Below, piece by piece: positions 6,493 to 54,835 of a stretch of 64,000 nt of DNA. Below the pieces are notes generated by a model. That model was given only the letters and a program-made list of their open reading frames with translations. It had not been told where the DNA came from and ran no database searches. Position 1 is the first letter of the stretch. The number at the start of each line of letters is the position of its first letter. A program made the position numbers and the translations under genes. This stretch comes from Pseudomonadota bacterium (lineage in GTDB: Bacteria; Pseudomonadota; Gammaproteobacteria; JAJDOJ01): positions 6,022 to 70,021 of the forward strand of contig JAYENI010000081.1 in the NCBI GenBank assembly GCA_034722015.1, written 5' to 3'.

Positions 6493-6649
6493 GGCGACTT
6501 CTGTCAAATGACATACCATCCTGCTTGTCTTTTCGTCCGTCCTCTATGTTGTGACAACAGTTGCATAGTTCGACTATGCGCCTGTCGTCGCGCCTTGATG
6601 ACGAACGAAAATCCCGCGCGATCTGGTATGTCATTTTCCGGCAATCGCC
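6493..6649. repeat. MITE-like element copy 1 (~160 bp, terminal inverted repeats GGCGAyTTCTGTCAAATGACATACC ... GGTATGTCATTTTCCGGCAATCGCC)
   Basis: Near-identical sequence recurs at 14800, 29737, 32858, 34886, 47316 and 54677. The internal part is itself palindromic. Lies between ppx and the upstream gene. Confidence 0.85.
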
Positions 6650-8112
6650 TTGACTTCCTCGACCCGTTTGATTCCACTCCGGTTTAACACGATGCGAAAA
6701 CGTTTGTACAGCTCGCCACGAGAGGTCAAATACCGGATCACCAGACTGATGTGGTACACCTTGCTACCTGCCCCCCTGTAATACCGGTCGCCATCCACCA
6801 CGAAAACCGCCTTGTCGGGGTTATCCATCTTCCGGACGAACCTCGACATGCCCAGCCTCCAGATGTCCGTGATTCCGTCTATCGGTGTGTTCCGGTAAAC
6901 CTGCTCGAAGTTTCGGGAAAATATCGTCATGGATTTCCGGTAGAGAAAAACCTTTTCGCCTAACTGGTCGTTATCGATTCGGGTGATCGGGTCGCGATTC
7001 CTGAGTCTGCGAATCTCCGGCTGCAGTTTACTGTCGGACATGAACTGGAAGGCCTCCCTGCTGACACCCAGCTGATTTCCGCGCGACCCACCGCATATCT
7101 TTACTTTATGGTCGAAGAATCGGCTCTGTACCTTCTTGTTGACATAAAGGCGGACCAGTTCCTTGATTCGATCCTTGAACATGTAACTGACCACGAGGGC
7201 GACAAAGAACGCCATGGTGAAATTTCCGTATGTCTGCTGGGTCAGAAAAGCCACCGTCGTTGCAAAAACCATCGCCAGTCCGGCCGCCAGGCTGTAGACC
7301 ACCTGCTCGGTGATTCGACCCTCGGGGCGAACGCTCGTATCGAGAAACAGGATGCTTTCCATGAGCCTTTTCAGAACGCCGCGGCGATAAATAAACGCTT
7401 CATTGTCCGAGTCGGCAGTGGGTATTGACGGATAACCCTGTTCAATTCGGTACGTGACCTCTTCAGTGATGATATCGAGAAGCGCCTTTCTGTAGCCTCC
7501 AGGGTTGTCGTCAGAAAGTTTCCCGGTCTTTTCCAGAATGTCGAAAGTGAATTGTTCGACAGTTGTGCTGATGTATTCGTCGGCAAGCGCGTAGATGGAA
7601 CGAATCCTGTCGTCGATCGAGGGCAGGGCAACCATTTCACGAAGACTTCTGAACCTTGGAAGGATCGTTTCCAGGTTGGGCAGGTAGTGTTCAACCAGAT
7701 ATTCCGCATCCGTTGAATTGCGCGCATTTGCTATCAGGTCGACATGGTCTCGTATGGAACTTTTAAGGATGCAGCAGAACAACTTGATCTGGTTTTCGCA
7801 ATTCCTGATCGCCGCGTCTGACTTGTGATCGGTCAGGTCTTTAAGGGCGGTCTCCAGTGCGACAAACGGGCTGTCGACGGCAGAGGCGATGTCGCGTAGC
7901 AATACAGTCGGTAGCTTGAACCGGATATAGGTCTGAGTGTCCCTGTAGAACAGGTATTTCGGATAGGTATCCGGGTTGACGTCAAGGCTGTTGGGGACAA
8001 AGACAAACGCCTCGATCGCATAGGCTGTATGTTTCTGATCTTGCTCAAGCTTGTAATCCGACTTGATCTCGACCTGAAACTTTCCAGAGGTCCTTATGGT
8101 TTCTTCGATCAT
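6631..8112 (-). CDS. Hypothetical membrane protein (2 central TM helices), lower GC than surroundings
   Basis: 493-aa ORF with no recognisable family. TM segment VVYSLAAGLAMVFATTVAFL...FTMAFFVALVVSYMF. GC ~50% against ~62% background. The last 6 codons and the stop lie inside the MITE. Confidence 0.6.
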   Translation of the reverse strand: MIEETIRTSGKFQVEIKSDYKLEQDQKHTAYAIEAFVFVPNSLDVNPDTYPKYLFYRDTQTYIRFKLPTVLLRDIASAVDSPFVALETALKDLTDHKSDAAIRNCENQIKLFCCILKSSIRDHVDLIANARNSTDAEYLVEHYLPNLETILPRFRSLREMVALPSIDDRIRSIYALADEYISTTVEQFTFDILEKTGKLSDDNPGGYRKALLDIITEEVTYRIEQGYPSIPTADSDNEAFIYRRGVLKRLMESILFLDTSVRPEGRITEQVVYSLAAGLAMVFATTVAFLTQQTYGNFTMAFFVALVVSYMFKDRIKELVRLYVNKKVQSRFFDHKVKICGGSRGNQLGVSREAFQFMSDSKLQPEIRRLRNRDPITRIDNDQLGEKVFLYRKSMTIFSRNFEQVYRNTPIDGITDIWRLGMSRFVRKMDNPDKAVFVVDGDRYYRGAGSKVYHISLVIRYLTSRGELYKRFRIVLNRSGIKRVEEVKAIAGK

Positions 8113-8203
8113 CGTCGACCCGCGGTGACTGTTGATTCATCGGTTGATGGTGCCGGATACTGCTGATACATGAGTGTGCCCTGTGTCGTGCCGTCGTTCG
8201 AGG

Positions 8204-10045: not shown

Positions 10046-10126
10046 TACCGGAACGAGTTGCGGAACATTGAACGGCGGGACCCTGCCCGTCGGGCTTTGT
10101 CGTGTGTCACTGTGCCAGCGGAAGAC

Positions 10127-11749: not shown

Positions 11750-11766
11750 GGCCCGGGTCCGGTTCG

Positions 11767-13206: not shown

Positions 13207-13226
13207 TTCAACCGGGTTGGAGACAT

Positions 13227-13992: not shown

Positions 13993-14799
13993 ATGCTGCT
14001 TATTGATTACAGGATAGGGGCTCCTCCTCGATCCGCACTCCTTCTAGACCCCCCTGCCGGGAACGGGCGGACGATGAAACTGACTGACTGTCACGGTATT
14101 TCCTATCCGGCCAAGATGAAATTTGGAAGCTGGATCGTGGCGGGCCCGCCAGGATCCGGAAAGTCCTGGCTCATCGACCGGATCGGCGGCTACCCCGGAG
14201 AGGTCGGCATCGACATCTCCCAGGACAAATGGTGGACCGTTGAACCGCTGACCCACAGGCCCCGGGAGCTCCATTTCGCTTTCCCGTTCAAAGGACTCAA
14301 AGACGCCCTGTCGGTGTATGACGAACCCTGGCGGGGGCGCAGCGAGTTTCCCGAGCTGGATTTCGATCGCATACGCATTCCGAAGAAGAAGAAGTTTGTC
14401 CTGGCCCCCAACTGGCGCGCCCGTTTCGTATTCGATTTTATCCTTCCCCCCCCGACCTGGCTTTTCGAGAATCGGAAGAGGCGCCTGTCTTCGGGTGACG
14501 TTCGCCTGGTCGACATGGGATTGACGCAGGAGTGGATCGCCTGGCAGGTGCATATCCATTGGCAGGTCGCCTGGTTCTTCCACCAGTCTGGCCTGCAGGT
14601 GATGCTGCGGCCTTTCAATACCGCGCGCCCCTACTCCTTTCCGGTGCTCAGGAAGGTCTTGAAAAAGAAGGCCCAGGCCGCTGAGAAAGCAGTCAATCCC
14701 GAGATGGACTGGTCCAAGGTGAAGTTCGTCAAGCTGTGGTTCGATGAGGCCTCACCCGACAAGTGGAAATTTCAGCCGCTGTCGGAAAAAGCGGCCTAA
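13993..14799 (+). CDS. P-loop NTPase of unknown family (paralog B), with lysine-rich C-terminal extension
   Basis: Walker A IVAGPPGSGKSWLI. Paralog of 13227-13877 and divergently transcribed from it. Probable true start MKLTD at 14074. Confidence 0.6.
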   Translation: MLLIDYRIGAPPRSALLLDPPAGNGRTMKLTDCHGISYPAKMKFGSWIVAGPPGSGKSWLIDRIGGYPGEVGIDISQDKWWTVEPLTHRPRELHFAFPFKGLKDALSVYDEPWRGRSEFPELDFDRIRIPKKKKFVLAPNWRARFVFDFILPPPTWLFENRKRRLSSGDVRLVDMGLTQEWIAWQVHIHWQVAWFFHQSGLQVMLRPFNTARPYSFPVLRKVLKKKAQAAEKAVNPEMDWSKVKFVKLWFDEASPDKWKFQPLSEKAA

Positions 14800-14956
14800 G
14801 GCGATTTCTGGAAAATAACATACCAGCCTGCTTGTTTGTTCGTCCGTCTTCGGCGTTGCGCCAACGGTTGCATAGTTCGACTATGCGCCCGTTTCCGCGC
14901 CTTGAAGACGAACGAAAATCCTGCGCATTCTGGTATGTAATTTCCCGGCAATCGCC
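14800..14956. repeat. MITE-like element copy 2
   Basis: ggcgatttctggaaaataacatacc ... ggtatgtaatttcccggcaatcgcc. Flanked by CTAAG / CTGAG. Sits between convergent gene ends. Confidence 0.8.
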
Positions 14957-14965
14957 TGAGCGCTG

Positions 14966-20830: not shown

Positions 20831-21493
20831 TTGACCGACCCCCCCCTTCCGTGCATCAATAATCGTCCGCACGAATCCACGCATTATCTGGCGTTTCGTA
20901 CCGGGGCGGTGGCCTCTGACACCGCATGGCGGCGCGTCTCGCCGTTCAAGGGCGTAGGCAGGCCGCGCACGCTGTTCCTTACCGACGTGCAAGTTCGGAG
21001 GCTGTTGGATCACGCTGACGGTGCGTTCCGTGGTCTGTGCGAGACAGTCATCGTCACCGGGGCCAGACCCGGAGAACTCGCCAATGCACGGGTACGTGAC
21101 TTCTCCCGCACGGACGGGACGCTGAGTCTGACCGGCAAGACCGGGCACCGGACGAGCTATCTGTCCCAGCAAGGGTTCGAGATGTTTACTCAGCTGTCGA
21201 GGGGGAAACTGCCCGGCGCATTGCTGTTGCCCAACGACGCGGGGATGCCGTGGCGTAAAGAACATTGGCGCGACTTGATGATGAGGGCAAGGAAGACCGC
21301 CCACCTGCCTGCCGACACGGTGATGTACTCACTACGTCATTACGCTGTGTCGAAGATGCTGGTTGCTGGCGTGGCCCCGCAGGTTACCGCGGAGAACACC
21401 GGCACGTCCATCCGCATGATCGAGCGGCACTACGGGAAATTCACCGCGCTCGACCGTCGCACGATGCTCGACCGGGTGGAGGTCGCGTTATGA
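20831..21493 (+). pseudogene. int: Tyrosine recombinase/integrase, catalytic domain only (5'-truncated)
   Basis: Box I VIVTGARPGELANARVRDF; box II YSLRHYAVSKM...IERHYGKF with catalytic Tyr. At 220 aa it lacks the N-terminal arm/core-binding domain. Confidence 0.75.
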
Positions 21494-21966
21494 GGGATCC
21501 GAAATACATCCGCGAGGTGACGCTCAAGAACGGCAGGTTGGGGGGGAGCGTGGGGGGCGTCTACGTCGCCGACCTCATGCAGGGTTGGGACGAAATCGGG
21601 GAAATACTCTCTGGCTCGGACGCGAGGAACCGTCTCGATGATTTCTTCCGAAACGAAATCGGAAAAAGATTCTCAGGCCCCGAGGCACAAGAACATATCG
21701 ACAGCTATCGGCGGGAGGTCAAAGCCGTCAAAGCGGGCCTAAAGCAAGCAGAAAGTTGTGAGAGGGGAGCAGAGAAAACCAACGAAACCCGACGGGAGCG
21801 GGCGCGGTGGTTGAACGAGCTTGTGGCGGACGAGTACCGGCAGTACAAAGACCGGCACCCCGACTGCACGGCGTCCGACGCAGCCCGGGCGATTCACAAA
21901 AACCACCCGGAGACGTTCGTCAGTTTCGAAGCGGTACGGCAGCGAATCAAGCGGTTGGGTCTCTGA
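21490..21966 (+). CDS. Hypothetical protein (island)
   Basis: ATGA overlap with the integrase stop. 159 aa, charged/helical, no family recognised. Confidence 0.4.
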   Translation: MRDPKYIREVTLKNGRLGGSVGGVYVADLMQGWDEIGEILSGSDARNRLDDFFRNEIGKRFSGPEAQEHIDSYRREVKAVKAGLKQAESCERGAEKTNETRRERARWLNELVADEYRQYKDRHPDCTASDAARAIHKNHPETFVSFEAVRQRIKRLGL

Positions 21967-22092
21967 CGAACGACCAAAGCAAGACGACGAAACGGCTCCC
22001 TCGGGGGCCGTTTTTTGTCGGTCGAAAATAGTTGGTCAAACGCTCTCCGTGTGACCAGACCAGTCGGGCAGACTGGGGGAACCTGTTGAAAA

Positions 22093-22347
22093 ATGGAGGT
22101 TCTTGCAGTGAGGCTCAACGAATTACCCATCGAACGACTGGCGTACAGCCCGGCAGAGTTGGCTGTCGCGACGAGCATCAGCCGGGCACAAATCTACCTG
22201 CTCCTCAACCAACGAAAGATCCGGGCGAGGAAGCTCGGCAAGCGGACAATCATCCTGCGCGCGGATGCGGAGGACTTTCTCGGCCGTCTGGAGGAGATGG
22301 TGGTGGTCGATCCTTCACAGGAGACGGATACAGAGAGGGTTGCGTGA
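22093..22347 (+). CDS. AlpA-like HTH regulator / excisionase
   Basis: YSPAELAVATSISRAQIYLLLNQRKIRARKLGKRTIILRADAEDFL matches the Phage_AlpA/excisionase HTH pattern. Confidence 0.55.
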   Translation: MEVLAVRLNELPIERLAYSPAELAVATSISRAQIYLLLNQRKIRARKLGKRTIILRADAEDFLGRLEEMVVVDPSQETDTERVA

Positions 22348-22889
22348 TGGGCAAGCACCTGACCCCGCTGGATGTCAACGGCACAACCATACATAACCAG
22401 AGTCGCGAGATGTATTCGCTCAATGACCTGTGGGAGGCGAGCGGTGGGAGTAACAGGCACCGGCCCTCTCACTGGTTGAAGCTCAAGCACCCCAAAGAGG
22501 TCATAAAGGAGCTGGAAAACGAGAATCCAAATGCAGGAATCCCTGCAATTAAACCCGTCCAGATCATCGCCGGAAAGTACGGCGGTAGATCGGAGTCGTA
22601 TGCACTCCTCACCGAGACGCAGGCGTACTTCCTCCTGATGCTGTCTCGGAACTTGTCGCCGGAGGGGGGGGCGATGAAATCAATCGCACTGACCCGTGAG
22701 GGCACGTCGTTCCTCGCCGATTCGCGGATGCTCTCGGATCGGTTGAAAATCGCACATCATCAAGTGTACCGGACGATTCTGAAATATGAAGCCGATATTC
22801 GAGACCTCGAAGACGGTCGAATTCTTCGTTTTGAAAGCGAGAAAATAATCTCCGGTCGGGACGCCCGTGCATTGAGGAGAAGACGATGA
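22347..22889 (+). CDS. KilA-N-like domain protein (phage)
   Basis: N-terminal LNDLWEASGGSNRHRPSHWL resembles the KilA-N DNA-binding domain. TGATG overlap with the upstream gene. Confidence 0.4.
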   Translation: MGKHLTPLDVNGTTIHNQSREMYSLNDLWEASGGSNRHRPSHWLKLKHPKEVIKELENENPNAGIPAIKPVQIIAGKYGGRSESYALLTETQAYFLLMLSRNLSPEGGAMKSIALTREGTSFLADSRMLSDRLKIAHHQVYRTILKYEADIRDLEDGRILRFESEKIISGRDARALRRRR

Positions 22890-23434
22890 ACGACGACAAG
22901 AAAGACGACCAGACCCCGACAGGTAGTGGTACTGAAATAGTCGGGCCTGTACCACAGATCATCCCCCTGACTGCCGGAATCGCAGTAGAGCATGGGTTGG
23001 AACGACAGTACGTCTACATTGGCGCAACGCTGGATCTGAACAAGGTCATGCCGAGTGGAGTGAAGTGGCAAAGCTTCAGCAAAAAATACGTGGAGTTCCG
23101 AAAGGTCGTACCCACACCCGGAACACTGAGCGAAGTTGATGACCACGCACGGGCGTTCATCGACTATGCCGGATACACCGAAGCCAAGGCGGAAGGCGCA
23201 GTGGTGTGGGTCATCTGGCGCGTATGGGAACTGAAAGGCAAGTCGAAGCTGATACTAGATGCAGATGCAAGACGCGATGTGCTCAATGCTATCGAAGCCA
23301 GGAAATTAATATTCGTAAATCGAAATAGATCGCAACAAAAAATATCATTGCCACGAAGGATATCGGACTCGGAACACGAAGACAGGCTGGCTACCTTGAT
23401 TGCTGTTGGTAAATATGCCAACATCCATCAATGA
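22886..23434 (+). CDS. Hypothetical protein (island)
   Basis: 182 aa, lower-GC 3' end, no family recognised. Confidence 0.35.
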   Translation: MNDDKKDDQTPTGSGTEIVGPVPQIIPLTAGIAVEHGLERQYVYIGATLDLNKVMPSGVKWQSFSKKYVEFRKVVPTPGTLSEVDDHARAFIDYAGYTEAKAEGAVVWVIWRVWELKGKSKLILDADARRDVLNAIEARKLIFVNRNRSQQKISLPRRISDSEHEDRLATLIAVGKYANIHQ

Positions 23435-23778
23435 GTAAGGATACGAGAGCCATCTCATGGATCAAGGCGGCGCACAAAGAGTTCGGGAGGTTTCCCCAGG
23501 GTGCGCAGACAATCATACTCCGGGCTTTGACGATTGCTGCTGAGGGCAGCAAGGCGGATATAGCGAAGCCGATGAAGGGCCTGGGTTCTGGTGTTATTGA
23601 GGTTGCTCTTGCTTATCGGTCTGATGCCTATCGGACGGTGTACGCCGTTACATTGGGTGAGGATATCTGGGTTGTCCATGCATTCCAGAAGAAGTCCACC
23701 CGCGGCATCAAGACACCGAAGAAAGATGTCGATTTGATCCGTTCTCGGATCAGTCAATTGAAGGAGCAGCTACGATGA
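23431..23778 (+). CDS. higB: Type II toxin, HigB/RelE-like (Gp49/DUF891-type killer protein)
   Basis: ~115 aa. Toxin gene lies upstream of an XRE-HTH gene with a 4-bp overlap, which is HigBA architecture. Confidence 0.65.
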   Translation: MSKDTRAISWIKAAHKEFGRFPQGAQTIILRALTIAAEGSKADIAKPMKGLGSGVIEVALAYRSDAYRTVYAVTLGEDIWVVHAFQKKSTRGIKTPKKDVDLIRSRISQLKEQLR

Positions 23779-24086
23779 CGAAGAAACTGGAAACCGTCAA
23801 TGGCAGTGGTAACGTTTTTCGGGACTTTGGTTATCAAAATGCCGACGTTGAACAACTCAAATCTCAACTGGCGGCTGAGATTATCCGGGTTCTTGATAAG
23901 CAGAAACTTTCTGTTCGCAAAGCAGCGGAAAAGACTGGCTTTGATCATGCGGATTTCTCACGGATCAGGAATGCAGATCTGGGTCGTTTCACTATTGACC
24001 GGCTGGTAACGGTGTTAAATCGTCTGAACCAGCGTGTCGAAATCAAGGTAACGCCTTTTCGTGGAAGGCGACCCAAGACCGCCTGA
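23775..24086 (+). CDS. higA: HigA-like XRE-family HTH antitoxin
   Basis: LSVRKAAEKTGFDHADFSRIRNADLGRFTIDRLVTVLNRL is HTH_XRE-like. Confidence 0.65.
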   Translation: MTKKLETVNGSGNVFRDFGYQNADVEQLKSQLAAEIIRVLDKQKLSVRKAAEKTGFDHADFSRIRNADLGRFTIDRLVTVLNRLNQRVEIKVTPFRGRRPKTA

Positions 24087-24210
24087 TAATGGTGCCAAAT
24101 CAGACCGGCTGGTAAGCAACTAGGCGGTCTGAAGTGGACCCCGAAAATTGGACAGGTTGATAAGTTAAGGAATGCGAGCGCGATTAACCGCAACGCAGAG
24201 GCAATCAACC

Positions 24211-24507
24211 ATGTCAAGAAAACGCAAAATTCATGCGCCCGAGTTCAAGGCCAAGGTCTCCCTTGAAGCGATCAAGGGGATGAAGACCACCAGCGAACTG
24301 GCCAGTCGGTATCAGGTTCACCCGGTCCAGATCAGTGCCTGGAAAAAGCAGGCAATCGAGAGCTTGCCCGAAACCTTCAAGCGGGGCAAGGCAGCGAAGC
24401 AACCCCTCACCGAGCAGGCGCTCACCGCGCCCCTGTTCGAGGAGATCGGGCGTCTGAAACTAAGTAGCCGCGACGTGACGTATAAGACAGTCACCAGTGC
24501 CTCTTGA
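24211..24507 (+). pseudogene. IS3-family transposase OrfA fragment
   Basis: MSRKRKIHAPEFKAKVSLEAIKGMKTTSELASRYQVHPVQISAWKKQ is the IS3/IS911 OrfA HTH. The C-terminus diverges and truncates. Confidence 0.65.
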
Positions 24508-25823: not shown

Positions 25824-25974
25824 GCCGTAGACGGTTTCGGTAGAAACCGTCTATTGACATCCCAAAAAAGTGGGAATAAGATCCCAAAAAATTATGAGCG
25901 TCCGACACCACTGTGAATGGGGGTTCGCAGGGTCGCTCACAGAGAAAACCTGGATTTCTACAGACCTTCGAATT

Positions 25975-28737
25975 ATGGGAGCAATCGTCGTGATGCCAGT
26001 TCGCCGAACAGATTTCTGCCTCCGCCACTATGTCATTTTGCTTCTGTCTGCAATTTTGCTGCTGGCTTTCAGCGGTTGCGGCGAACAACAGGCGACCGAG
26101 ACGGCCGCGCTCGTTGTTTCGGGCGAGTCGGGTGCGGCTGCAGACAGACGCGACCCGTTCAGGATCGACGAAGCGCAGTGGAAGAGGGAAGAATCCCTGC
26201 TCAGGGTGAAGGGCAAGGGGAACAAGGGAGCCAGCGTTGCGATCTCCAATGCCGATACACTGATCCTGCTGGGCCAGGTCAGGGTTGACGACGAATGGGA
26301 ATTTCGCAACTCCGACCTTGGAGCCGTTCCGTGCCGTGTGAGGGCAGAGCAATCCGATGGGCAGATTGCCGAGATGGCGGTAAAGGATGCACCCGAGGAT
26401 TGTGCAGGTGGCATCGCCGGAGGCCAGCCGGGTGTCGCGAGCGGCTTCGCGCTGCTGGGGGCCAATGACCTGGGTATGCGTTGCGCCGACCTCGACTACC
26501 AGATATTCAGCATCCTTCCGCCGTTCAACGTGGTTCACGCCCAGGCGATCGAGAAGGGTACTTCGAACAGCCTTCCCCGGATCCTTGATGGTACCGAGGT
26601 GGCTGTCACATATCATGCCGCCAGCAGTGCCGACGATCCTGCCGGGGCGGGTTCGATCAACACGACAAGCCAGAATTCACCCGTTGCTTTCAAGTCCAAT
26701 TTCTGGGAAGACAGTGGCCATCCGGTCCCCCTGAGTGGAAGCGCCGGCAACAACTCATGGGGTGGACTGGCTTACGGGCCGCTCTACCCGAGCGTACTGG
26801 CCGGCGCACTGGTCCCGCCGCCTGCCGGCCCCCTGAACCTTGCCGGAGAATGCAGTGTTCCTGCAACCCCCGCCGGTTGCCCCAGCATCCTGAATCTGTT
26901 CGAGCCCTTGCCCGCGGACACCGGGATACCCGTGCCGGACCCCAATGCGCTTTCTCCCGTGGCGGGTTCGCCGGAACTGGTGACCGCGCAGCAACACATG
27001 CCCGGTCCTGCCAACATCCCGCAGGAGTTTGACCGCTTCGACAGGGACCTCGCTTTTTTTGTCGACTTTCCCTTCGGCAGCCGTGTGACGAATGTCAACT
27101 GGTTTGCCGCGGACGGTGTACCAATCATGCCCGTCGACGATGACGGGCGAGGTAACGCCTACCCGTTAATGCAGCTTACCGCCCGTGACAAGGGTACGCA
27201 CGACGAGATGGCTTCGCTGGATGTCGTCCTGCCGGTTGCTTCCGAGGCCGATTGCCAGAACTGTCACGTGGAGCCAATCGACTGTGCGGATCCGTCCCTG
27301 CCGGGCGAGGTGCTTGCCAATTCCGATGCGTGTATCGGCGCGGCAGTGTCTCAAACCACTTTTCAGGTAGAAACGCTGGACGACAACCCCCCGGGAAATA
27401 CGCGACTCGAGCAGTTGCTGAATACCGCCAAGGTCAACGTTCTTCGGTTGCACGACATGAAGCACGGGGACAAGTATCGCAACTGGGACGCTGGAAACAA
27501 TCTTGCTGCCAGGGTATGCGATTCCGTTGCCGATCCCCAGGACCCGGATTGCCTGGCCAACCAGACGCCGATCCAGTGTTCACGCTGCCACTACACCCCG
27601 GCGCTTGATCTGGCCCAGGCGGGTCCGGTTGACGAGCCCGAACAGGGCCTGAACGGCCGCCAGCAGACCGTTCACATCAGCATGTCGCGTGCCATGCACT
27701 TTCACCATGGGAATCTACCGCCGTTCGAAGGCAGACCCCTGTTCCCGGCGATGCCGGCGCCGGATAGTCCCGAGCGATCCGCGGGCGCCCTCGCAGTCAA
27801 CGATTTCGAACAGAAGGTGCTGGGCGAGACCTGCTACCAGTGCCATCCGGGAAAGCGCACCCAGTGTCTGCGCGGCGCCATGTTTGCGGGTGGCGTGGTT
27901 TGTCAGGACTGCCACGGCGCCATGGCGCAGGTGGGTAGCGACTTCACCGGGAATTTTCCGAATACACCGTTTCCGGCAGGTGCGGACCTGAGCAGGCGCG
28001 TACCCTGGGCCATCGAGCCGAAGTGCCAGTCCTGCCATACCGGTGACGCCAACAATCCCGGTCACCCCAATGGCGCCATTGTGGCCGATGACGGTATTCG
28101 TTTGTTGCAGGCGTTCGCGAAAGGCGACGCCGACGCCACGCCCATTGGACGTCCGGACTCCCGATTCGCGGAGAACACGGGCCAGAACGGGAATGGAGAT
28201 ACGGTCGATGTCTTGTATCGCTTGAGTACGGGTCATGGCGGTGTGATGTGCGAGGGCTGCCACAACTCCACTCATGCGATCTGGCCCGTGCAGAATCCGT
28301 TCGCCAACGACAACATCGCGTCCGACCAGTTGCAGGGGCATCAGGGTACCGTCGTCGAATGCAATACCTGTCACGACCCCGAAAACTTCCGGAAGGGAGG
28401 ACTCCTGGATCCGCAGAACAGCGGCGATTTACTGAAGGGGCCGCACGGCATGCATCCGGTGCCGATGGAAACGGGTGGGCTCACAATGACTGCGACTCAC
28501 TTCGTGGATGGCGGCCACGAGGAGATCGCGGAAAATGACAAGGACGCCTGCCGCGCCTGCCACGGAAAAAACGGTGAAGGGACTGTGCTGTCCCGGGTCG
28601 CAGTGAATCGCACTTTTGTCGTCGAAGAATGCAAGAAGGGCGACCTGTGCCCCGGGCAGGAGATCGAGAACTTTACGGTAGAGCTGTCCAGGGGAACGCA
28701 AGTGAGCTGCACGCTCTGCCACGAAAACGAACTCTAG
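25975..28737 (+). CDS. Nonaheme c-type cytochrome lipoprotein (~920 aa; N-terminal ~450-aa heme-free domain)
   Basis: Lipobox LLLAFSGC. Nine CxxCH motifs: CQNCH, CSRCH, CYQCH, CQDCH, CQSCH, CEGCH, CNTCH, CRACH, CTLCH, all in the C-terminal half. Confidence 0.85.
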   Translation: MGAIVVMPVRRTDFCLRHYVILLLSAILLLAFSGCGEQQATETAALVVSGESGAAADRRDPFRIDEAQWKREESLLRVKGKGNKGASVAISNADTLILLGQVRVDDEWEFRNSDLGAVPCRVRAEQSDGQIAEMAVKDAPEDCAGGIAGGQPGVASGFALLGANDLGMRCADLDYQIFSILPPFNVVHAQAIEKGTSNSLPRILDGTEVAVTYHAASSADDPAGAGSINTTSQNSPVAFKSNFWEDSGHPVPLSGSAGNNSWGGLAYGPLYPSVLAGALVPPPAGPLNLAGECSVPATPAGCPSILNLFEPLPADTGIPVPDPNALSPVAGSPELVTAQQHMPGPANIPQEFDRFDRDLAFFVDFPFGSRVTNVNWFAADGVPIMPVDDDGRGNAYPLMQLTARDKGTHDEMASLDVVLPVASEADCQNCHVEPIDCADPSLPGEVLANSDACIGAAVSQTTFQVETLDDNPPGNTRLEQLLNTAKVNVLRLHDMKHGDKYRNWDAGNNLAARVCDSVADPQDPDCLANQTPIQCSRCHYTPALDLAQAGPVDEPEQGLNGRQQTVHISMSRAMHFHHGNLPPFEGRPLFPAMPAPDSPERSAGALAVNDFEQKVLGETCYQCHPGKRTQCLRGAMFAGGVVCQDCHGAMAQVGSDFTGNFPNTPFPAGADLSRRVPWAIEPKCQSCHTGDANNPGHPNGAIVADDGIRLLQAFAKGDADATPIGRPDSRFAENTGQNGNGDTVDVLYRLSTGHGGVMCEGCHNSTHAIWPVQNPFANDNIASDQLQGHQGTVVECNTCHDPENFRKGGLLDPQNSGDLLKGPHGMHPVPMETGGLTMTATHFVDGGHEEIAENDKDACRACHGKNGEGTVLSRVAVNRTFVVEECKKGDLCPGQEIENFTVELSRGTQVSCTLCHENEL

Positions 28738-29736: not shown

Positions 29737-29902
29737 GGGAAGCCAAGGCGATTTCCGTCAAATGACATACCATCCTGTTTGTCTTTTCATCCGTCCTCTG
29801 TGTTGCGTTCAACCGTTCCATCGTTCGTATGCGCCTGTTGTCGCGCCTTGATGACGAACGATAATCCGGCGCGATCCGGTATGTCATTTTCCGGCAATCG
29901 CC
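29737..29902. repeat. MITE-like element copy 3
   Basis: ggcgatttccgtcaaatgacatacc ... ggtatgtcattttccggcaatcgcc. Confidence 0.85.
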
Positions 29903-32797: not shown

Positions 32798-32857
32798 ACG
32801 GCGGCCCGGTCTGTGGCAGGCCAAGGGTTCCTCTGCCTTCCCTGAAGGCAAGGGCTA

Positions 32858-33015
32858 AGGCGATTGCCGGAAAATGACATACCAGAATGCGCCGGATTCT
32901 CGTTCGTCATCAAGGCGCGACAACAGGCGCATCGTCGAACGATGGAACGGTTGTCGCAACACAGAGGACGGATGAAAAGACAAGCAGGATGGTATGTCAT
33001 TTGACAGAAATCGCC
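32858..33015. repeat. MITE-like element copy 4 (inverted orientation), flanked by direct CTAAG
   Basis: ctaag|gcgattgccggaaaatgacatacc ... ggtatgtcatttgacagaaatcgc|ctaag. Confidence 0.85.
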
Positions 33016-33020
33016 TAAGC

Positions 33021-33755
33021 TCAGGGCGTCGTACGATATCTGGACGGCAAGGGGTTTGCAGGCTGAGCTGGCAGGTCCTTGTCGAAACAGTGGATATGTG
33101 ACCGGGTACCCGCAGTGCTGACATACGAAATCAGGCACTCCTTGCCGTTGGGTTCATCAACGACCTTGCGGACAATAAGATCACCTTCCCGCATCTGGTT
33201 CGTCTGCGTCAGGCTCCCTTTGCCACCGGCTTGACTCTTGTAGCAGATCAATGCCGGAGAGGTGCTGTTCGTGCTGACAAAGGCGATGAGACAGGTTTCC
33301 GTGCTGTCCGGGTCCACCACCCGATGCACATCGAGGTCTCCCTCGCGTAGGTGTCCCTGACGGACGATGCTGTCTTTCGGGGCGAAGGCACTCCGGTAAC
33401 AGTCGATGGCAGGTGAGGTTCCGGATGTACTGACATATGCGACCAGGCAGGACATGCTGTTGACGGAATCCTTGATCTTCCGAATGACCAGTTTCCCTTC
33501 CTTGAAGTGTCCCACCTGGTTGATGTTGGTCCGGAAGCCGGAGGTCCCTTCGTAACAGTACATTGCCGGGCTGGTCCCCGTCGTCCGTACATAGAAGGCC
33601 AGACAGATCTTGTTGCTTTCGAGGTCACTGACGGTGCGGACAATGAGATCGCTCTCGCGGAACTGGCCTGTTTGAACAAGAAGCGAGGATTGGTATTCTC
33701 CCAGGGCGGGGTAAAGCGGCAATGCGGTCAGCAGAACAATCAGCAACTTCTTCAT
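33021..33755 (-). CDS. Secreted protein with four ~50-aa tandem repeats, each with a conserved Cys pair
   Basis: Signal peptide MKKLLIVLLTALPLYPALG with a GGAGG RBS. Repeat consensus G.FREGDLIVR.V.D....CL.AYVST.GTSPA..CY. Confidence 0.6.
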   Translation of the reverse strand: MKKLLIVLLTALPLYPALGEYQSSLLVQTGQFRESDLIVRTVSDLESNKICLAFYVRTTGTSPAMYCYEGTSGFRTNINQVGHFKEGKLVIRKIKDSVNSMSCLVAYVSTSGTSPAIDCYRSAFAPKDSIVRQGHLREGDLDVHRVVDPDSTETCLIAFVSTNSTSPALICYKSQAGGKGSLTQTNQMREGDLIVRKVVDEPNGKECLISYVSTAGTRSHIHCFDKDLPAQPANPLPSRYRTTP

Positions 33756-34385
33756 TGAAAGATCCTCCAGGTTTTGAGGCCTGAATCTGGTTTGCAGGTT
33801 AAAGGGTGGTAAATTAACGTCCCGACTGTGATTCCACGGCATCCGGAGTGGACGGTGCGTACCGACCTCTCCAGGCGGGGATATCGTGTCCAGTCTATGG
33901 TCTCCGGGCGGAAATCGGCTCGATTCGGATCCCCGGAGTTTACGCCAAGTCGTCCGTGTCCGAGAGGCAGGATTCCTGCGCCAGACCCTCGCTTCAGGGC
34001 ACCCTATGGCGCGTTGCCCGGAGAACTTCGCTGGCCCCACGCGTGAAACCGGGCCATCTCCAGACGCGGTTGTAATAATAGCAGCTTGTGCCAAACTATT
34101 GGAAAAACGGGTCCTATCCGCTGTATCGGCCAGAATCGCTCGCCTGGCCGGATGCGAGTGGCCAAAAGGTCTTGAGCCGTGTCAAGCTAAAGGTGTATTA
34201 TAATCCGCTAATATACTTCCTCGTAAGTGACGCAGTCACGGAGTGGGCGGATCACGTGTTCAAGTTGCGTCGATTCTGCAACACGGTGCCGAGTAGCGGC
34301 CGACATTGGCGCCATGGCTGACGAGCGCTTGGGTGGGAAGCTTATTCTGAAGCAGGTACCCATTAACAGGTCTGGAGACAAGAAT

Positions 34386-34885: not shown

Positions 34886-35041
34886 GGCGATTGCCGGAAA
34901 ATGACATACCAGATCACGCCGGATTTTCGTTCGTCTTCAAGGCGCGGCAACGGGCGCATAGTCGAACTATGCAACCGTTGCCACAACGCCGAAGACGGGC
35001 GAAAAGACAAGTGAGGTGGTACATGATTTGACAGAAATCGC
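34886..35041. repeat. MITE-like element copy 5, flanked by direct CTTAG
   Basis: cttag|gcgattgccggaaaatgacatacc ... atttgacagaaatcgc|cttag. Confidence 0.85.
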
Positions 35042-35078
35042 CTTAGCAGCGTTGCATCTGGCAGAAAGACGATCGGAC

Positions 35079-35834: not shown

Positions 35835-36483
35835 CGGTGCCGGCCTGACCGTCCGGGGAGGGCATTTCCGGTACCCTGAGGAATGAACCGGGGCAACACC
35901 GCATTCTGAAACAAATCTGTCGAGCGTGATCTGTGTCCGCGGGTGGCTGGCGCACGGTGTGAGCCACACGCGCTGACGCCGGGGGATGCGCGCACGGTAT
36001 GCAACCGCAGTCCTTCGTCGAGTTATCGGCACACACCTTGCTATTGGTTCGGACGAAGCCGCGGGCTGGGACCGGGACGAGAACTACGTACAAGTCCTCG
36101 TAAGGCGAGCCGACAATCCCTAACGGTGTCGGGGACCTCGTCCGGGTATTCTTTCGACCGAACGAGGTCGCCACGGATGACGAGCCCCGGACTCGCAAGC
36201 AAAGCGGGAAAGCACAGCGCTGCAAGATATCGTCGAGCTTGCAGGGAACACTTCGCTGCGTCCCTGGGAGGAGCGTGTCGGCTTTCCGGGCTTCGCATCA
36301 GTCATCCAACCTGGCACTGCCCGGGTGGGTCAGGCACATCCTCGAGGAGACGGCGAGGGGCGTGATCGGGACGGTGCCCTACGGGAACGATCGCGCTGCC
36401 CTGGCGGACATGCCGAATCGACCCGGGGTACCGCGTTGCGCCTGACGGTCGTCCGGATCCCGGTAGCGCGAGAACTCACTTAG

Positions 36484-36530
36484 GCGATTGAAGGAAAATG
36501 ACATACTGGAATGCGCCTTATTCCCAACCC
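36484..36530. repeat. MITE-like element, partial copy (one terminus only)
   Basis: ggcgattgaaggaaaatgacatactggaatgcgcc. Confidence 0.6.
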
Positions 36531-40163: not shown

Positions 40164-40170
40164 CGGGTCG

Positions 40171-45680: not shown

Positions 45681-47238
45681 GCGAGGAGTCCGGGGTCGGA
45701 TTCGGACTTCACGAACGGCTCTCGACGCCCACCCTGCGGGAGAAGCTGAGAGAACTCGGGCTGGAGGAGCTCGCGCGCTGGCGCGACAAACTATCGGTCG
45801 AGGATCTCGAACCCGCCGTCGCCGCGCATCTCGGCCGACTGTTCACACGCCTTTCCCTTGCCCTGCGAGAGAAGGACCACGATCAGTGGGGGCACGCGCT
45901 TGGGCAGTTTGCCGGGGCGTTGCAGTCCGCGGGCAATCCATTCGAAGGCCTGGCAGGAGAGGTTCCCGTGCCACCCTTCGAGCAACTGCTCGAGGTTGTG
46001 ACGCGAGAGGCCGGTGTCCTTGGAAAATCCAGAAGCATTCGCCCGGATGTGCCGCTGGGAGTTTCCGCCTTGCTCACAGGGGCCGGGAGAACCCCAAGCC
46101 TGATCAGTCAGATTCAAAAGGAACTGGCGAGTACGGACCGGGCCGACTGGCTCGTGAACGGCTCGACAGGGAGCAGTTCGATTACGTCGTGCTGGACGAG
46201 GCGCACCACGCGGCGGCGGCAAGCTATCGGGCCATCCTGGAACATGTCCGCCCGCGGGTCCTGCTCGGCCTGACGGCCACGCCCGAGCGGACCGACGGCC
46301 GTGATATCCGCGAGGACTTCGGTGGTCGCTATACCCACGAAATTCGCCTGCCGGATGCCGTCGAGCGGCGTCTGCTCGCCCCGTTTCACTACTTCGGGGT
46401 ATCCGATCACGACTCGATCGATCTCGCGCATCTCCACTGGCAGCGCGGCGGATACAGTCAGGCCGAGCTGGACCGGGTATTCGGCGCGAACGAGGTGCGG
46501 GCGAAGTGGGTGTACCGTCAGGTACTGGAGACTGTGGCCGATCCGGGACGCATCCGCGGGATTGGATTCTGCGTCAGCCAGGAGCATGCCCGGTTCATGG
46601 CGCGGATATTCTCGGAATGGGACCTCCCGTCCGAGGCCCTCACGGCCAACAGCGGCAAGGACCGGCGCAGGGAAGCCCAGAGGGATCTCGTGCAACGCCG
46701 GATCCGTTTTATCTTTACCGTCGATCTCTACAACGAAGGGGTCGATATTCCCGAGGTGGACACCGTTCTCCTGCTGCGCCCCACGGAGAGCCTCACGGTC
46801 TATCTGCAGCAGATCGGTCGGGGTCTGCGGCTCCACGAGGAAAAGCCCCATCTGACGATCCTCGATTTCATCGCGCCCCAGCATCGCCAGTTCCGGTTTG
46901 CGGATCGCTACCGCGCGCTGAGCAGTGAGCCAGCGGCCCGCATAGACCGGCAGGTCGAGGACGGCTTCCCCTGGCTGCCGAGCGGTTGCCTGATCGATCT
47001 GGATCCCGTCGCCAGAGAAAGGGGGCTGGAGAACATTCGCGGCAATCTGGATATGCGCAGGGACAAGGTTGTCGAGAATCTTGCGCAATGTCGCCAGCAT
47101 CTCGGGCGCCGCCCCGGTCTCGAAGAGATGCTGGACTGGCTGCATTTCGACACCTCGAACACCCGATGCCCGCCCGGATTTTCAGGATCAGTCACCGCGA
47201 GGCCGCGTGAGCGGGGCGACGAGCGCTGGTCGATTTAA
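45677..47238 (+). pseudogene. SF2 (DEAH-box, type III restriction Res-like) helicase, frameshifted and lacking motif I/PLD domain
   Basis: Frame shift near 46140-46160 between ORF 45677-46273 and ORF 45886-47238. Downstream frame carries VVLDEAHHAA (II), LGLTATP (III) and QQIGRGLR (VI). Paralog of the intact PLD-helicase at 63089. Confidence 0.55.
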
Positions 47239-47315: not shown

Positions 47316-47472
47316 GGCGATCGCCGGAAAATGACATACTGGATCGCGTCGGATTATCGTTCGTCATCAAGGCGCGACGACAGGCGCATCGTCGAACGAT
47401 GTAGCGGTTGTCGCAACACAGAGGACGGACGAAAAGACGAGCAGGATGGTATGTCATTTGACAGAAATCGCC
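47316..47472. repeat. MITE-like element copy 7, flanked by direct CTTAG
   Basis: cttag|gcgatcgccggaaaatgacatact ... atttgacagaaatcgc|cttag. A further short terminal fragment (ggaaatcgcctaagg) lies at ~47975-47990. Confidence 0.85.
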
Positions 47473-47521: not shown

Positions 47522-47950
47522 ATGACGATAGACAGAAAGGCGCTTCGACATTCACTGCGCAAGACCGCCGACGCCTTCCTTCGACTACTGCCGCTTCTGG
47601 TCGGCGTACTGTTGCTGGCCGGACTACTGGTGCAACTCGTACCCTGGCTGTTCCGGGCTGGGTTGTTCGGGCACGGTACGGCCGTAGATACGTGGGTCGC
47701 CGCCGTTATCGGGAGCGTCTCTACCGGTCCGCCGTTCACCGGTTACGTGCTGGGTGGCGAGCTTGTGTTGGGGGGGATCGCCCTGGTGACCGTCACGGCC
47801 TTCATCACCGCCTGGACAACGGTGGGTGTCGTTCAGCTTCCCGCGGAAGCCGGGATGCTTGGCTGGCGTTTCGCCCTCTGGCGAAATCTGATCGCCTTCC
47901 TGTTCTGCGTCCCGATCGCGTGGCTCACCGTGGTGACGCTGCGTGTCTGA
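47522..47950 (+). CDS. Putative permease, N-terminal half (DUF318/YraQ-like), split gene
   Basis: 4 TM segments, Gly-rich; followed by a second 4-TM half-gene. Confidence 0.4.
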   Translation: MTIDRKALRHSLRKTADAFLRLLPLLVGVLLLAGLLVQLVPWLFRAGLFGHGTAVDTWVAAVIGSVSTGPPFTGYVLGGELVLGGIALVTVTAFITAWTTVGVVQLPAEAGMLGWRFALWRNLIAFLFCVPIAWLTVVTLRV

Positions 47951-48001
47951 CAAGAAGGCCAGACCAGGAAATCGCCTAAGGCAGGGTTCGGCTGGTGGTT
48001 T

Positions 48002-50031: not shown

Positions 50032-50049
50032 TCAGCGGGGGAGCGGCAC

Positions 50050-50727: not shown

Positions 50728-50732
50728 AATCC

Positions 50733-51968: not shown

Positions 51969-54695
51969 GTGTTTGTCATGCCCACGAATGACCCGAGTTT
52001 CGCCTGGCATGCCCAGGATGTGGATGCCGTGCTCGAACGGCTGGAAACCAGGGATACCGGGCTCGAACAGGTCGAGGCCAACCTACGCCTGCAACGCTAC
52101 GGCCCGAACCGGCTGCCGCCGCCCAAACGCCGGGGTTCCTGGCTGCGGTTCCTGATCCAGTTCCACAACGTCCTGATCTATGTCCTGATTGCCGCGGCGC
52201 TGGTGACCGCCCTGCTGGGGCACTGGGTGGATACCGGCGTCATCGTCGCCGTCGTTCTCATCAACGCGCTGGTGGGGTTCGTCCAGGAAGGCAAGGCCGA
52301 ACGCGCGCTGGACGCCATCCGCAACCTGCTGTCTCCCCATGCCACCGTGCTGCGCGACCGGAAGCAGGTGGTGCTTCCCGCCGAGCAGGTCGTGCCGGGG
52401 GACGTCGTACTGCTGCAGCCGGGTGACAAGGTCCCTGCCGATCTGCGCCTGATTCGCGTCAGGGACCTGAGAATCGAGGAGGCCGCGCTGACCGGAGAGT
52501 CGGTGCCCGTGGACAAGACCCGGGGTGAGGTGGAGGAGGAGACGGTCCTGGGCGACCGGACCAGTATGGCATTCGCCAGCACCCTGGTGACCTACGGTCA
52601 GGGCGCCGGGATCGTCGTCGGTACCGGTGAGGACACCGAGATCGGCCATATCAGCGCCCTTCTGGGGAAGGTACACACGCTGACGACTCCGTTGCTGCGG
52701 CAGATCTCCCGATTCGGGCGCTGGCTGACCGCGGCCATCCTGTTCATGGCCGCCTGTACGTCCGCTTACGGCATCCTGGTCTGGGAAAATCCACTCAGCG
52801 ACATGTTTCTCGCCGCGGTCGGCCTGGCGGTTGCCGCCATTCCCGAGGGACTCCCCGCGATCATCACCATCACGCTCGCGATCGGCGTGCAGCGCATGGC
52901 CGCCCGCAACGGGATCATTCGTCTGCTTCCCGCAGTGGAGACGCTCGGCGCGGTTTCAGTTGTCTGTTCGGACAAGACGGGGACACTGACGCGGAACGAA
53001 ATGACGGTCCAGACCGTTGCCAGTGCCCGTAACCTGTTCGACGTGGCCGGGGTGGGCTACAACCCGCACGGCGGGATCCGTGTGAACGAAGAGGAGATAG
53101 ATCCCGAGACGCGCCCGGGACTGATGGAGCTGGCGCGCGCCAGCCTGCTCTGCAACGACGCCGAAGTGAATCTCGACGACGGGCGATGGAAGCTGTCGGG
53201 CGATCCCACCGAAGGCGCGCTGTATACCCTGGCCCTGAAATGCGGCCTCGATCCGTTGTTTCAGAAGGAGTCGCTGCCCCGTACCGACACGATTCCGTTC
53301 GATTCCCGGCACCGCTTCATGGCGACTTTGCATCACGACCATGCGGGTCACGGGTTCATCTATATCAAGGGCGCACCGGAGCGCCTGGTGGATCGGTGCG
53401 CATGGCAGCGCATCGAGGGCGAGGATCAGCCGATCGACATCGGCTACTGGTACCGGCGCGTGGAGGAGATCGCGCGGCGCGGTCAGCGAACCCTGGCACT
53501 GGCGTTCCGTTCCGCGGAACCGGACCACGGCGAGCTGAAGTTCGACCACGTCGAGGGGGGGCTCACCCTGCTCGGTCTGGTCGGGATCATCGATCCGCCC
53601 CGCGTAGAGGCAATCGAGGCCGTGAAGCAGTGCCGCTCGGCGGGAGTCACCGTCAAGATGATCACCGGGGACCACGCGGTGACAGCCCATGCGGTCGCCG
53701 ACCAGATGGGTATCGGCGACGGCGGCAGTACGCTGACCGGCGACGAGATCGAAGGGTCGGCCGAAGTGGAGTTGCGTGATGCCGTCCGGAACATCGACGT
53801 ATTTGCCCGTACCAGCCCGGAACACAAACTGCGCCTGGTGGAGGCGCTGCAGGCCAACGGCACCGTGCTGGCCATGACCGGCGACGGCGTCAACGACGCC
53901 CCCGCCCTGAAGCGCGCGGACGTGGGCGTGGCCATGGGCATCAACGGCACCGAGGTGGCGAAGGAGTCCGCTGAAATGGTGCTGGCCGACGACAACTTCG
54001 CGTCCATTGTCCACGCCATCGAAGAGGGCCGCACGGTCTACGACAATATCAAGAAATCCATTCTCTTCATTCTTCCCACCAACGGTGCGGAGGCGTTCAC
54101 CCTCATTGCGGCCATCCTGCTGGGCTATCACCTGCCCATCACCCCGGTCCAGATCCTCTGGGTGAACATGATCACGGCGGTCACGCTGGCACTGTCACTG
54201 GCCTTCGAACCGCCGGAGACCGATATCATGAACCGCCCGCCCAGGGACCCGGACGAGCCCATCCTGTCGGGGTTTCTCATCTGGCGCACGCTCTTCGTCT
54301 CCCTGCTCATGGTGGCGGGAATCTTCGGCCTGTTCCTGTGGGAGATCGATTCCGGCACATCGCTGGACACGGCAAGGACGGTCGCCGTCAATACGCTGGT
54401 GATGTTCGAGGTCTTCTACCTGCTCAACACGCGATACATCCGGCGCTCGATCCTGTCGCGCAAGGGGCTGACGGGGAACCGCAAGGTGCTCGTCGCCATC
54501 GTCCTGGTGGTCTTCTTCCAGTTTCTTTTTACCTACCACCCATGGATGCAACAGCTTTTTCACACCACGCCCCTGGATGCCAAAACCTGGGCGGTGCTGG
54601 TACTGGTCGCGTCATCGGTGTTCTTTGTCGTCGAGCTGGAGAAGTATTTCGCCAGATATTGCAGTTCCAGGAGTAAGGCGATTTCTGTCAAATGA
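51969..54695 (+). CDS. Cation-transporting P-type ATPase (P2-type, Ca2+/Mg2+-like)
   Basis: CSDKTGTLT phosphorylation motif; TGES; MITGDH...GDGVNDAPAL; 10 TM segments. Confidence 0.9.
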   Translation: MFVMPTNDPSFAWHAQDVDAVLERLETRDTGLEQVEANLRLQRYGPNRLPPPKRRGSWLRFLIQFHNVLIYVLIAAALVTALLGHWVDTGVIVAVVLINALVGFVQEGKAERALDAIRNLLSPHATVLRDRKQVVLPAEQVVPGDVVLLQPGDKVPADLRLIRVRDLRIEEAALTGESVPVDKTRGEVEEETVLGDRTSMAFASTLVTYGQGAGIVVGTGEDTEIGHISALLGKVHTLTTPLLRQISRFGRWLTAAILFMAACTSAYGILVWENPLSDMFLAAVGLAVAAIPEGLPAIITITLAIGVQRMAARNGIIRLLPAVETLGAVSVVCSDKTGTLTRNEMTVQTVASARNLFDVAGVGYNPHGGIRVNEEEIDPETRPGLMELARASLLCNDAEVNLDDGRWKLSGDPTEGALYTLALKCGLDPLFQKESLPRTDTIPFDSRHRFMATLHHDHAGHGFIYIKGAPERLVDRCAWQRIEGEDQPIDIGYWYRRVEEIARRGQRTLALAFRSAEPDHGELKFDHVEGGLTLLGLVGIIDPPRVEAIEAVKQCRSAGVTVKMITGDHAVTAHAVADQMGIGDGGSTLTGDEIEGSAEVELRDAVRNIDVFARTSPEHKLRLVEALQANGTVLAMTGDGVNDAPALKRADVGVAMGINGTEVAKESAEMVLADDNFASIVHAIEEGRTVYDNIKKSILFILPTNGAEAFTLIAAILLGYHLPITPVQILWVNMITAVTLALSLAFEPPETDIMNRPPRDPDEPILSGFLIWRTLFVSLLMVAGIFGLFLWEIDSGTSLDTARTVAVNTLVMFEVFYLLNTRYIRRSILSRKGLTGNRKVLVAIVLVVFFQFLFTYHPWMQQLFHTTPLDAKTWAVLVLVASSVFFVVELEKYFARYCSSRSKAISVK

Positions 54696-54835
54696 CATAC
54701 CATCCTGCTTGTCTTTTCGTCCGTCCCCTGTGTTGCGACAACCGTTCCATCGTTCGACGATGTGCCTGTTGTCGCGCCTTGATGACGACCGATAATCCGG
54801 CGCGATCTGATATGTCATTTTCCGGCAATCGCCTA
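54677..54835. repeat. MITE-like element copy 9
   Basis: taag|gcgatttctgtcaaatgacatacc ... atatgtcattttccggcaatcgc|ctaag. The 5' end overlaps the last codons of the ATPase. Confidence 0.85.

Follow-up and report, generated by a model that had tools for sequence, protein, structure and literature searches.

A probable miniature inverted-repeat transposable element with 3-bp TWA target duplications in uncultured gammaproteobacteria

The Correia elements (NEMIS) of Neisseria and the ERIC sequences of enterobacteria are non-coding repeats of about 100-160 bp with terminal inverted repeats (TIRs) and a hairpin body, and they are present in tens to hundreds of intergenic copies. They occur as length variants caused by insertions and deletions, they are fused to gene ends, and often no autonomous partner can be identified. 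A repeat of 157 bp, which is dispersed over a 64-kb stretch of gammaproteobacterial DNA (64,000 nucleotides of contig JAYENI010000081.1 from assembly GCA_034722015.1, hereafter the window), is similar to them in size, TIRs, hairpin, intergenic copies, length variants and gene-end fusion, and also in that no partner was identified. It differs from the Correia elements in its TIR sequence, which is unrelated, and in its target, which is TWA (3 bp) within Y-TWA-R (hyphens delimit the triplet) rather than TA. The hosts are also different from those of Correia and ERIC, being uncultured Competibacteraceae/Chromatiaceae-like gammaproteobacteria. The 157-bp element is very probably a MITE (miniature inverted-repeat transposable element), that is, a non-autonomous DNA transposon. 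For the explanation as a whole, a MITE that is mobilised in trans by a TWA-duplicating transposase of the DDE type, we estimate a probability of about 0.85.

Comparable target sites have been described for several transposon groups. The IS1031 group of the IS5 family of insertion sequences (ISs) has a three-nucleotide target (PMC2516522). PIF/Harbinger elements generate TWA duplications, and for NuwaII, with the target C-TNA-G, there is an ambiguity between a 3-bp and a 5-bp duplication; the transposases of the PHIS superfamily and those of the bacterial IS5 family are related (PMC4482050). The element is similar to the IS5-family groups with a 3-nt target (IS1031, IS427, ISL2) in its 3-bp duplication, in ends that start with G, and in a run of A about 12-17 nt inward. 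It is unlike the IS1031 group in its tip (GGCGATT rather than GAG...), and neither a transposase nor a matching full-length IS was found; therefore, membership in the IS5 family cannot be claimed. With the "Tourist" MITEs of the PIF/Harbinger type and with NuwaII it shares the choice of target and the same ambiguity between 3 and 5 bp. These elements are eukaryotic, and the resemblance is mechanistic only. Like the REP/REPIN sequences associated with RAYT proteins, the element is palindromic, intergenic and abundant, but it has TIRs and a regular 3-bp duplication and lacks an associated Y1 transposase. Tn3-derived inverted-repeat miniature elements (TIMEs) are non-autonomous and bacterial (PMC4133298). 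They would fit a 5-bp duplication, whereas a direct 5-mer flanks the element in only 11 of 86 copies, which argues against a TIME. Tn3-type ends are repeats of about 38 bp that start with GGGG, and the ends of the element differ from these.

Architecture and copies of the element

The element begins with G and ends with C, and its near-palindromic body is bounded by imperfect TIRs of 25 bp (arm A, GGCGATTGCCGGAAAATGACATACC; arm B, GGCGATTTCTGTCAAATGACATACC; terminus sequence, GGCGATTKCYGKMAAATGA). The TIRs are almost invariant across 83 distinct copies; mean column identity is 0.90 and 0.95 at the termini, compared to 0.81-0.91 in the interior. Four fixed positions distinguish the two arms in 83/83 distinct copies. 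This is compatible with a founder that passed on distinct left and right ends, or with each end being constrained. TIR position 22/136 covaries between subfamilies (T-A, 35; G-C, 33). Stop codons are present in every reading frame in some of the copies, and public predicted open reading frames (ORFs) that overlap the element do not show Pfam domains of their own. The preliminary description of the window had called the repeat MITE-like, with TIRs, two arm variants and a palindromic body, and the 25-bp TIRs, the conserved ends and the hairpin fold (see below) confirm this.

Copies in the window were located by nhmmer with a profile built from copies (strand "+" meaning that arm A is on the left). 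This resulted in exactly seven full copies (156-157 bp) and one terminal fragment of 42 bp. For the two terminal 25-mers, the window has 10 and 7 occurrences (with up to 3 mismatches), while none are expected from dinucleotide-preserving shuffles. Four full copies, each 157 bp long, have perfect duplications: copy 4 (32859..33015, +; TAA at 32856-32858 and 33016-33018), copy 5 (34886..35042, +; TTA/TTA), copy 7 (47316..47472, +; TTA/TTA) and copy 8 (54677..54833, -; TAA at 54674-54676 and 54834-54836). In the three others, the flanking triplets differ by one mismatch each: copy 1 (6493..6649, -; 157 bp, 172 bits; GTG at 6490-6492 and TTG at 6650-6652), copy 2 (14800..14956, -; 157 bp, 151 bits; TAA at 14797-14799 and TGA at 14957-14959) and copy 3 (29747..29902, -; 156 bp, 158 bits; CAA and TAA). 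The truncated copy (36483..36524, +; 42 bp) consists of the arm A terminus only (model positions 1-42, E = 9e-6) and is preceded by TTA; its alignment to the full copies is lost after about 40 nt. A remnant of the arm B tip (47962..47976, +; 15 bp, GACCAGGAAATCGCC, then TAA) is too short for nhmmer and was read directly. It has a 13-mer that exactly matches the tip of the element together with the duplication, for which about 0.002 occurrences are expected by chance in 128 kb (an estimate). The copy list of the preliminary description thus stands with respect to the seven full copies, the fragment and the remnant, while the start of copy 3 (29737) had been placed 10 bp too low and two other positions (32858 and 36484) were off by 1.

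Pairwise identity among the window copies is 80-95%; the G+C content of the window is 60%. In a multiple alignment of these copies, flank similarity is gone immediately beyond the element ends, and a repeat finder reports units of 157-165 nt and no longer blocks. The copies are therefore discrete units, as the preliminary description had assumed, and not segments of longer duplications.

For a survey of public data, a stop-free frame of the element was translated, and metagenome contigs were searched with it as if it were a protein. This resulted in 413 confirmed stretches, with 80 loci being kept. In the same survey, 149 metagenome stretches fit the arm B pattern but not the body, and a partner IS might be sought there first. 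The window and these loci make up the copy set (844 kb), which contains 94 full copies; the length is exactly 157 bp in 80 of these. The element was found in independent assemblies (GenBank metagenome-assembled genomes (MAGs), JGI, ENA and Logan). In a pattern scan of species-representative genomes, the matches listed include MAGs labelled Candidatus Competibacteraceae, Chromatiaceae and "Pseudomonadota MAG153". Copy density varies between about one copy in 9 kb and one in 44 kb. The median identity of copies within one metagenome is 97.5% for Ga0209458 and 90.5% for Ga0210096, and the value for Ga0209458 points to recent activity or a burst. The ppx gene from the window is identical on a Logan contig of 1,666 bp (L006), which ends inside the element, as is typical of assemblies that break at repeats. 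A literature search with the terminal sequences resulted in chance matches only. As there is also no Rfam match and no plasmid match, the sequence family appears to be undescribed.

Target site, movement and length variants

Target duplications were analyzed for 86 unique copies from the window and the public contigs. In 71 copies, the same 3 bp are found on either side, and in 11 the two triplets have a one-base difference; the identical triplets are TTA (41), TAA (28), TCA (1) and CAA (1). The base preceding the triplet is C or T in 71/86, and the base following it is G or A in 76/86. Thus, the target is Y-TWA-R with a 3-bp duplication of TWA. In the preliminary description, a 5-bp duplication of CTWAG had been proposed, since CTAAG or CTTAG brackets copies 4, 5 and 7. 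The letters had been read correctly, but the 5-bp duplication did not survive the alignment of more copies: a direct 5-mer is found in 11/86, compared to 71/86 for 3 bp, and direct repeats of 4, 5 or 6 bases abutting GGCG.../...CGCC are not found in any of the 86 copies. The ambiguity arises because CTWAG is nearly its own reverse complement, so that a 5-bp duplication around GCGATT...AATCGC reads like a TWA duplication around GGCGATT...AATCGCC in C-TWA-G. The window alone cannot tell the 3-bp from the 5-bp reading, whereas more copies can. That CTWAG is seen in the window is explained by the element ends (G...C) and by a target that favours Y before and R after TWA. It had also been argued that the flanking bases are a target duplication rather than an extension of the TIRs, and this proved correct: the central base of the triplet is the same on both sides in 84/92 and complementary in 5/92. 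As the central base is direct and not complementary, the triplet derives from the target and lies outside the inverted repeat, and the alternative that TWA extends the inverted repeat is rejected.

The element is a discrete unit with conserved ends and a 3-bp duplication, and its mobility as a unit is supported by a site that is filled in one contig and empty in a related one, by an insertion nested in another repeat, and by a length variant that has spread. The empty site in contig L058 reads CACTTGAATCTGG, while its 94%-identical counterpart in L011 reads CACTTG[157 bp]CTGAATCTGG, the gain being the element plus 3 bp. The nested insertion is in L044, where the element (1323-1479) interrupts an unrelated repeat of about 270 bp, intact copies of which are found in L070 and L060.

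A 235-bp subfamily, present in three different metagenomes, has an internal insertion of about 78 bp that is bounded by GCGCCGG direct repeats (L040 2572-2806; also L051, L058, L073, L082, L086, L015 and L023). It occupies eight different sites, seven of which have perfect 3-bp duplications, TCA being found twice. This form, having its own duplications at eight sites, must have transposed after gaining the insertion. There are also forms of about 60 bp (L003, L004), which are hardly more than two ends, and a form of 30 bp in L063. At the same site in two contigs that are 98.5% identical, one has a full 157-bp copy (L056 11337-11493) and the other the 30-bp remnant (L063 3654-3683, GGCGATTGCCGGAAAATGACAGAAATCGCC), both being flanked by TAA. 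A TGA microhomology marks the junction in the remnant. This pair and its TGA junction indicate that the short forms are produced by in-situ deletion inside the palindrome.

Position relative to genes

Gene contexts were obtained with a rough codon-usage caller, which was trained on long ORFs of the loci and is imperfect (in the window, an antisense ORF was chosen over a Pfam-supported helicase gene). None of the 86 copies is inside an intact predicted gene. According to this caller, 27 copies are in tandem, 10 in convergent and 5 in divergent contexts, which resembles the background (286/63/55), and numerous copies are located 9-60 bp upstream of a start codon. The location had been described as intergenic, and without exception at 3' ends or in the space between convergent genes. 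The former holds, while the latter is too strong, and a preference for such positions is rejected. A bias in orientation relative to transcription is likewise rejected, as the two orientations are found 14:13 in tandem contexts. With the strict Y-TWA-R target, TAA stop codons are safe landing sites, which explains the earlier impression of copies at gene ends. The duplicated TAA is the stop codon of a neighbouring gene in 8/86 copies, and in one more the stop codon overlaps the element tip by 1 nt.

The positions of several window copies illustrate this range. Copy 1 is located 25 bp upstream of the start of ppx (at 6467). Copy 2 lies between convergent genes, its left TAA being the stop codon of the ORF 13993..14799(+). 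Copy 4 lies between a gene for a FIST protein and the ORF 33021..34094(-), which are convergent. Copy 5 is directly upstream of a methyltransferase ORF, the longest reading of which (35016..) begins within the element. Copy 7 is downstream of a helicase-like ORF (45886..47238(+)) and 49 bp upstream of the ORF 47522..47950(+).

In two of the 86 copies, both from the window (copies 1 and 8), an ORF reads through 19 nt into the element and ends at a TGA (element positions 17-19), which is present in both arms. The insertion has thus supplied stop codons and C-termini to two genes, as had been proposed. When the original C-termini are reconstructed by deletion of the element and one triplet, the last 2-6 native codons turn out to be replaced. 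The ORF 6631..8112(-), which ends in arm A of copy 1, has changed from ...EEVK-VT to ...EEVK-AIAGK, and the P-type ATPase ORF 51969..54695(+), which ends in arm B of copy 8, from ...SRSK-RTGQQD to ...SRSK-AISVK (each followed by the stop codon). The former ORF codes for 493 amino acids (aa) and lies in a stretch of low G+C content (0.52); it has a good codon score and is without a Pfam match. That the element creates spurious ORFs was also confirmed, with public ORF predictions overlapping the element. Predictions for AcrR, LysR, YccF, a cobalamin-dependent protein and others contain element-derived stretches, and in an ENA assembly two direct copies that are 352 bp apart (L087 10020-10177 and 10530-10686) are fused into a "protein" of 224 aa (P0005).

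Origin of the element and associated mobile remnants

An IS transposase with a preference for CTWAG, which had been implied by the preliminary description, was not found in searches of the window, the loci, and plasmid and viral collections. Within the loci, solo or gene-flanking termini are absent except for the short deletion forms, and dispersed repeats of more than 400 bp are confined to overlapping contigs. Inverted pairs of TIRs flanked by TWA and spaced 0.6-3.5 kb apart are only MITE pairs around ordinary genes (e.g., YggS and PmbA). PLSDB plasmids (including BLAST searches with both termini) and IMG/VR viral contigs did not provide a partner. When each frame of the element was used as a protein query, only spurious ORFs and gene tails were retrieved but no transposase. 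Four further contigs also lack one, and neither the ORFs that were tested nor the Pfam listings for the genes nearby include a transposase of the DDE_Tnp_1 or DDE_Tnp_4 type.

A second MITE family occurs on the same contigs. It is about 131 bp long, with the ends GAGGCTGTC...AAAAAC (terminal consensus GAG(G/A)CTGT(C/A)TAA(A/G)AACTAA), and shows the same 3-bp duplications in C-TWA-G (L035 1100-1231, L057 7167-7297, L060 2942-3071, L061 5480-5610 and others). At least 53 termini are found in contigs from Ga0209458, Ga0056121 and Ga0209679. This family with its C-TWA-G flanks indicates that a TWA-duplicating enzyme activity was once present in these hosts.

The classification as a MITE is based on a non-coding length below 300 bp, on TIRs, on a duplication of fixed length, on dispersed copies with unrelated flanks, and on an insertion polymorphism. 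A DDE-type transposase, supplied in trans, would bind both ends and cut Y-TWA-R with a 3-nt stagger, so that TWA is duplicated upon insertion. This enzyme is rather likely of the IS5 family (IS1031/IS427/ISL2-like) or of the PIF/Harbinger type, judged by analogy from the Y-TWA-R target and the 3-bp duplication. A short duplication (2-4 bp) at a palindromic target centred on TA or TNA is a feature of the IS5/PHIS group that is found here, and the second MITE family with C-TWA-G flanks would lend further help to this assignment. The palindrome over the whole length is best explained as a legacy of the origin of the element, one end of an IS having been duplicated in inverted order, and it makes the copies prone to in-situ internal deletion, from which the forms of about 60 bp and 30 bp result. 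Intragenic insertions were presumably purged by selection, and such selection would leave survivors that are intergenic or that are located exactly on TAA stops, which are regenerated by the duplication.

Several observations weigh against this explanation. In about 0.9 Mb of DNA from the hosts, neither an autonomous partner with these ends nor an IS5-type transposase is found. The palindrome is complete, unlike a remnant of a simple internal deletion of an IS. Only a single empty site was found (L058/L011), and its duplication is non-canonical (TTG/CTG). Ends of the IS1031 type begin with GAG, compared to GGC in the element, which leaves the duplication as the basis for the assignment to the IS5 family.

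The missing partner and the deviating GGC tip would also be compatible with a MITE that is mobilised by a DDE transposase from outside the IS5 and PIF/Harbinger group. Duplications of 3 bp are possible in several IS families (e.g., some members of IS3, IS30 and ISNCY), and the window contains an IS3-type orfA remnant (HTH_Tnp_1, 24172-24507). However, the ends of IS3-type elements (TG...CA) do not fit the element, the co-resident second MITE family shares the C-TWA-G flanks, and a palindromic Y-TWA-R target with a strict 3-bp TWA duplication is a signature of the PIF/Harbinger type (PMC4482050), so that we consider this alternative unlikely. Doubts are stronger for an orphan MITE lineage that is active across several uncultured gammaproteobacterial families without a cognate IS, being cross-mobilised by an unrelated or unclassified transposase, or being kept for a host function. 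The long hairpin, the high copy number and the strictly intergenic location are as in REP/REPIN sequences, and a Y1_Tnp pseudogene is present in a related metagenome contig (L084 2894-3145). A palindromic doublet of the REPIN type, spread by a domesticated Y1 (RAYT) transposase, is nevertheless highly improbable: the element has regular direct 3-bp duplications (71/86) and an empty site without them, while regular target duplications are, to our knowledge, not a property of REP/REPIN sequences. Furthermore, the repeats that bracket the pseudogene belong to another family (GAGGCTG...), and solo or gene-flanking termini of the element were not seen. A reading of the copies as assembly artefacts or as parts of longer segmental duplications has nothing in its favour beyond the repetition itself. 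With flanks that are unrelated right up to the trinucleotide, with the 157-bp unit recurring in assemblies made independently of each other, and with short-read contigs that break at the element (L006), it is hardly credible.

A very different explanation is that the element is, by its primary nature, a structured RNA or regulatory hairpin selected by the host (a terminator, an mRNA stabiliser or a small RNA), with its repetition being secondary. RNA folding, which had been suggested in the preliminary description, results in one long hairpin on either strand; copy 4 folds as a single hairpin with -72.6 kcal/mol (z = -8.2), and the other strand reaches -67 kcal/mol (z = -7.6). In addition to this very stable hairpin, this explanation could draw on the copies that adjoin gene ends and on arm B, which has a perfect outward-directed TTGACA 10 nt from the tip that is conserved in more than 90% of the copies. 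However, no Rfam 15 family reaches its gathering threshold in the window, copy 4 has no match at E <= 1, and the element is oriented at random with respect to the adjacent transcription unit (14:13). RNAalifold reports a small covariation term (-1.47 kcal/mol), and G.U variants seem to exceed A.C variants, but in the palindromic register, which is unbiased, G.T and A.C mismatch columns are balanced (23 vs 21). The excess is thus an artefact of the pair choice by alifold, and a strand-specific RNA structure is rejected, as there is no signal for strand-specific pairing. A T-tract terminator is not found and promoters are not enriched, the scans for promoter-like and terminator-like features being at or below chance. 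Hexamers that resemble a -10 box at the right spacing are no commoner in the flanks beside arm B than in those beside arm A; together with a consensus scan at chance level, this leads to the rejection of hybrid promoters that would start from the outward TTGACA. There is no support for a selected RNA structure, and an RNA as the primary nature of the element is very unlikely. The four fixed arm differences and the outward TTGACA are the hints in favour of the orphan lineage considered above, and together they might mean that the two ends have different jobs, e.g., promoter delivery.

As a MITE, the element is an ordinary addition to a well-known class and leaves the knowledge of transposition unchanged; its main value lies in the annotation and assembly of these gammaproteobacteria. 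It breaks short-read assemblies, seeds spurious ORFs and alters the C-termini of real genes, and a profile of the family would allow annotators to mask it. It also represents a clean prokaryotic case of a Tourist-like MITE that duplicates TWA, with insertions targeted to stop codons. Its copy density makes it a useful strain marker in gammaproteobacteria of the wastewater or sediment type.

Other repeats occur on the same contigs. An element of 1,069 bp (L084 2293-3361) has GAGGCTG-family termini and TAA/TAA as its boundaries. Within it lies the Y1_Tnp (IS200-like) pseudogene (ORF 2894-3145, E = 2e-22), which covers profile positions 53-120 only. An IS200-like sequence may have inserted into a MITE here, or the arrangement may be of a rarer kind. 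The third MITE family is 99 bp long and has ends that read GGGCAC(T/C)TTGAAAAATA and flanks that are mostly T(T/A)A-like (33 termini; L056 13198-13296 and 15898-15996, L035 10908-11006, L049 626-724 and others). Two copies of this family bracket a 2.8-kb segment with two ORFs (227 and 557 aa), which are devoid of a Pfam match. A 104-bp presence/absence difference between two contigs that are about 99% identical (L075 2483-2586 compared to L083 713/714) shows no sign of TIRs or of a duplication and has no relation to the element. A fourth repeat family is G+C-rich, has a length of about 240-300 bp and contains internal inverted repeats (L070 7872-8107 and 3878-4112, L060 9656-9886, L085 10187-10460); it often adjoins the 157-bp element or is interrupted by it.

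The window itself contains a 955-aa ORF (25870-28737) with only weak matches to multihaem cytochrome c7/c3 domains (residues ~652-726). At lower coordinates, a small remnant of a mobile island (20831-24507) has a reduced G+C content of 0.50-0.56. It codes for a Phage_integrase fragment (20831-21493), a KilA-N/Rha-like protein (22032-22889) and a toxin-antitoxin-like pair (Gp49/HTH_37, 23431-24086), and the IS3-type orfA remnant at its end, which is not accompanied by orfB, is the sole transposase-like piece in the window.

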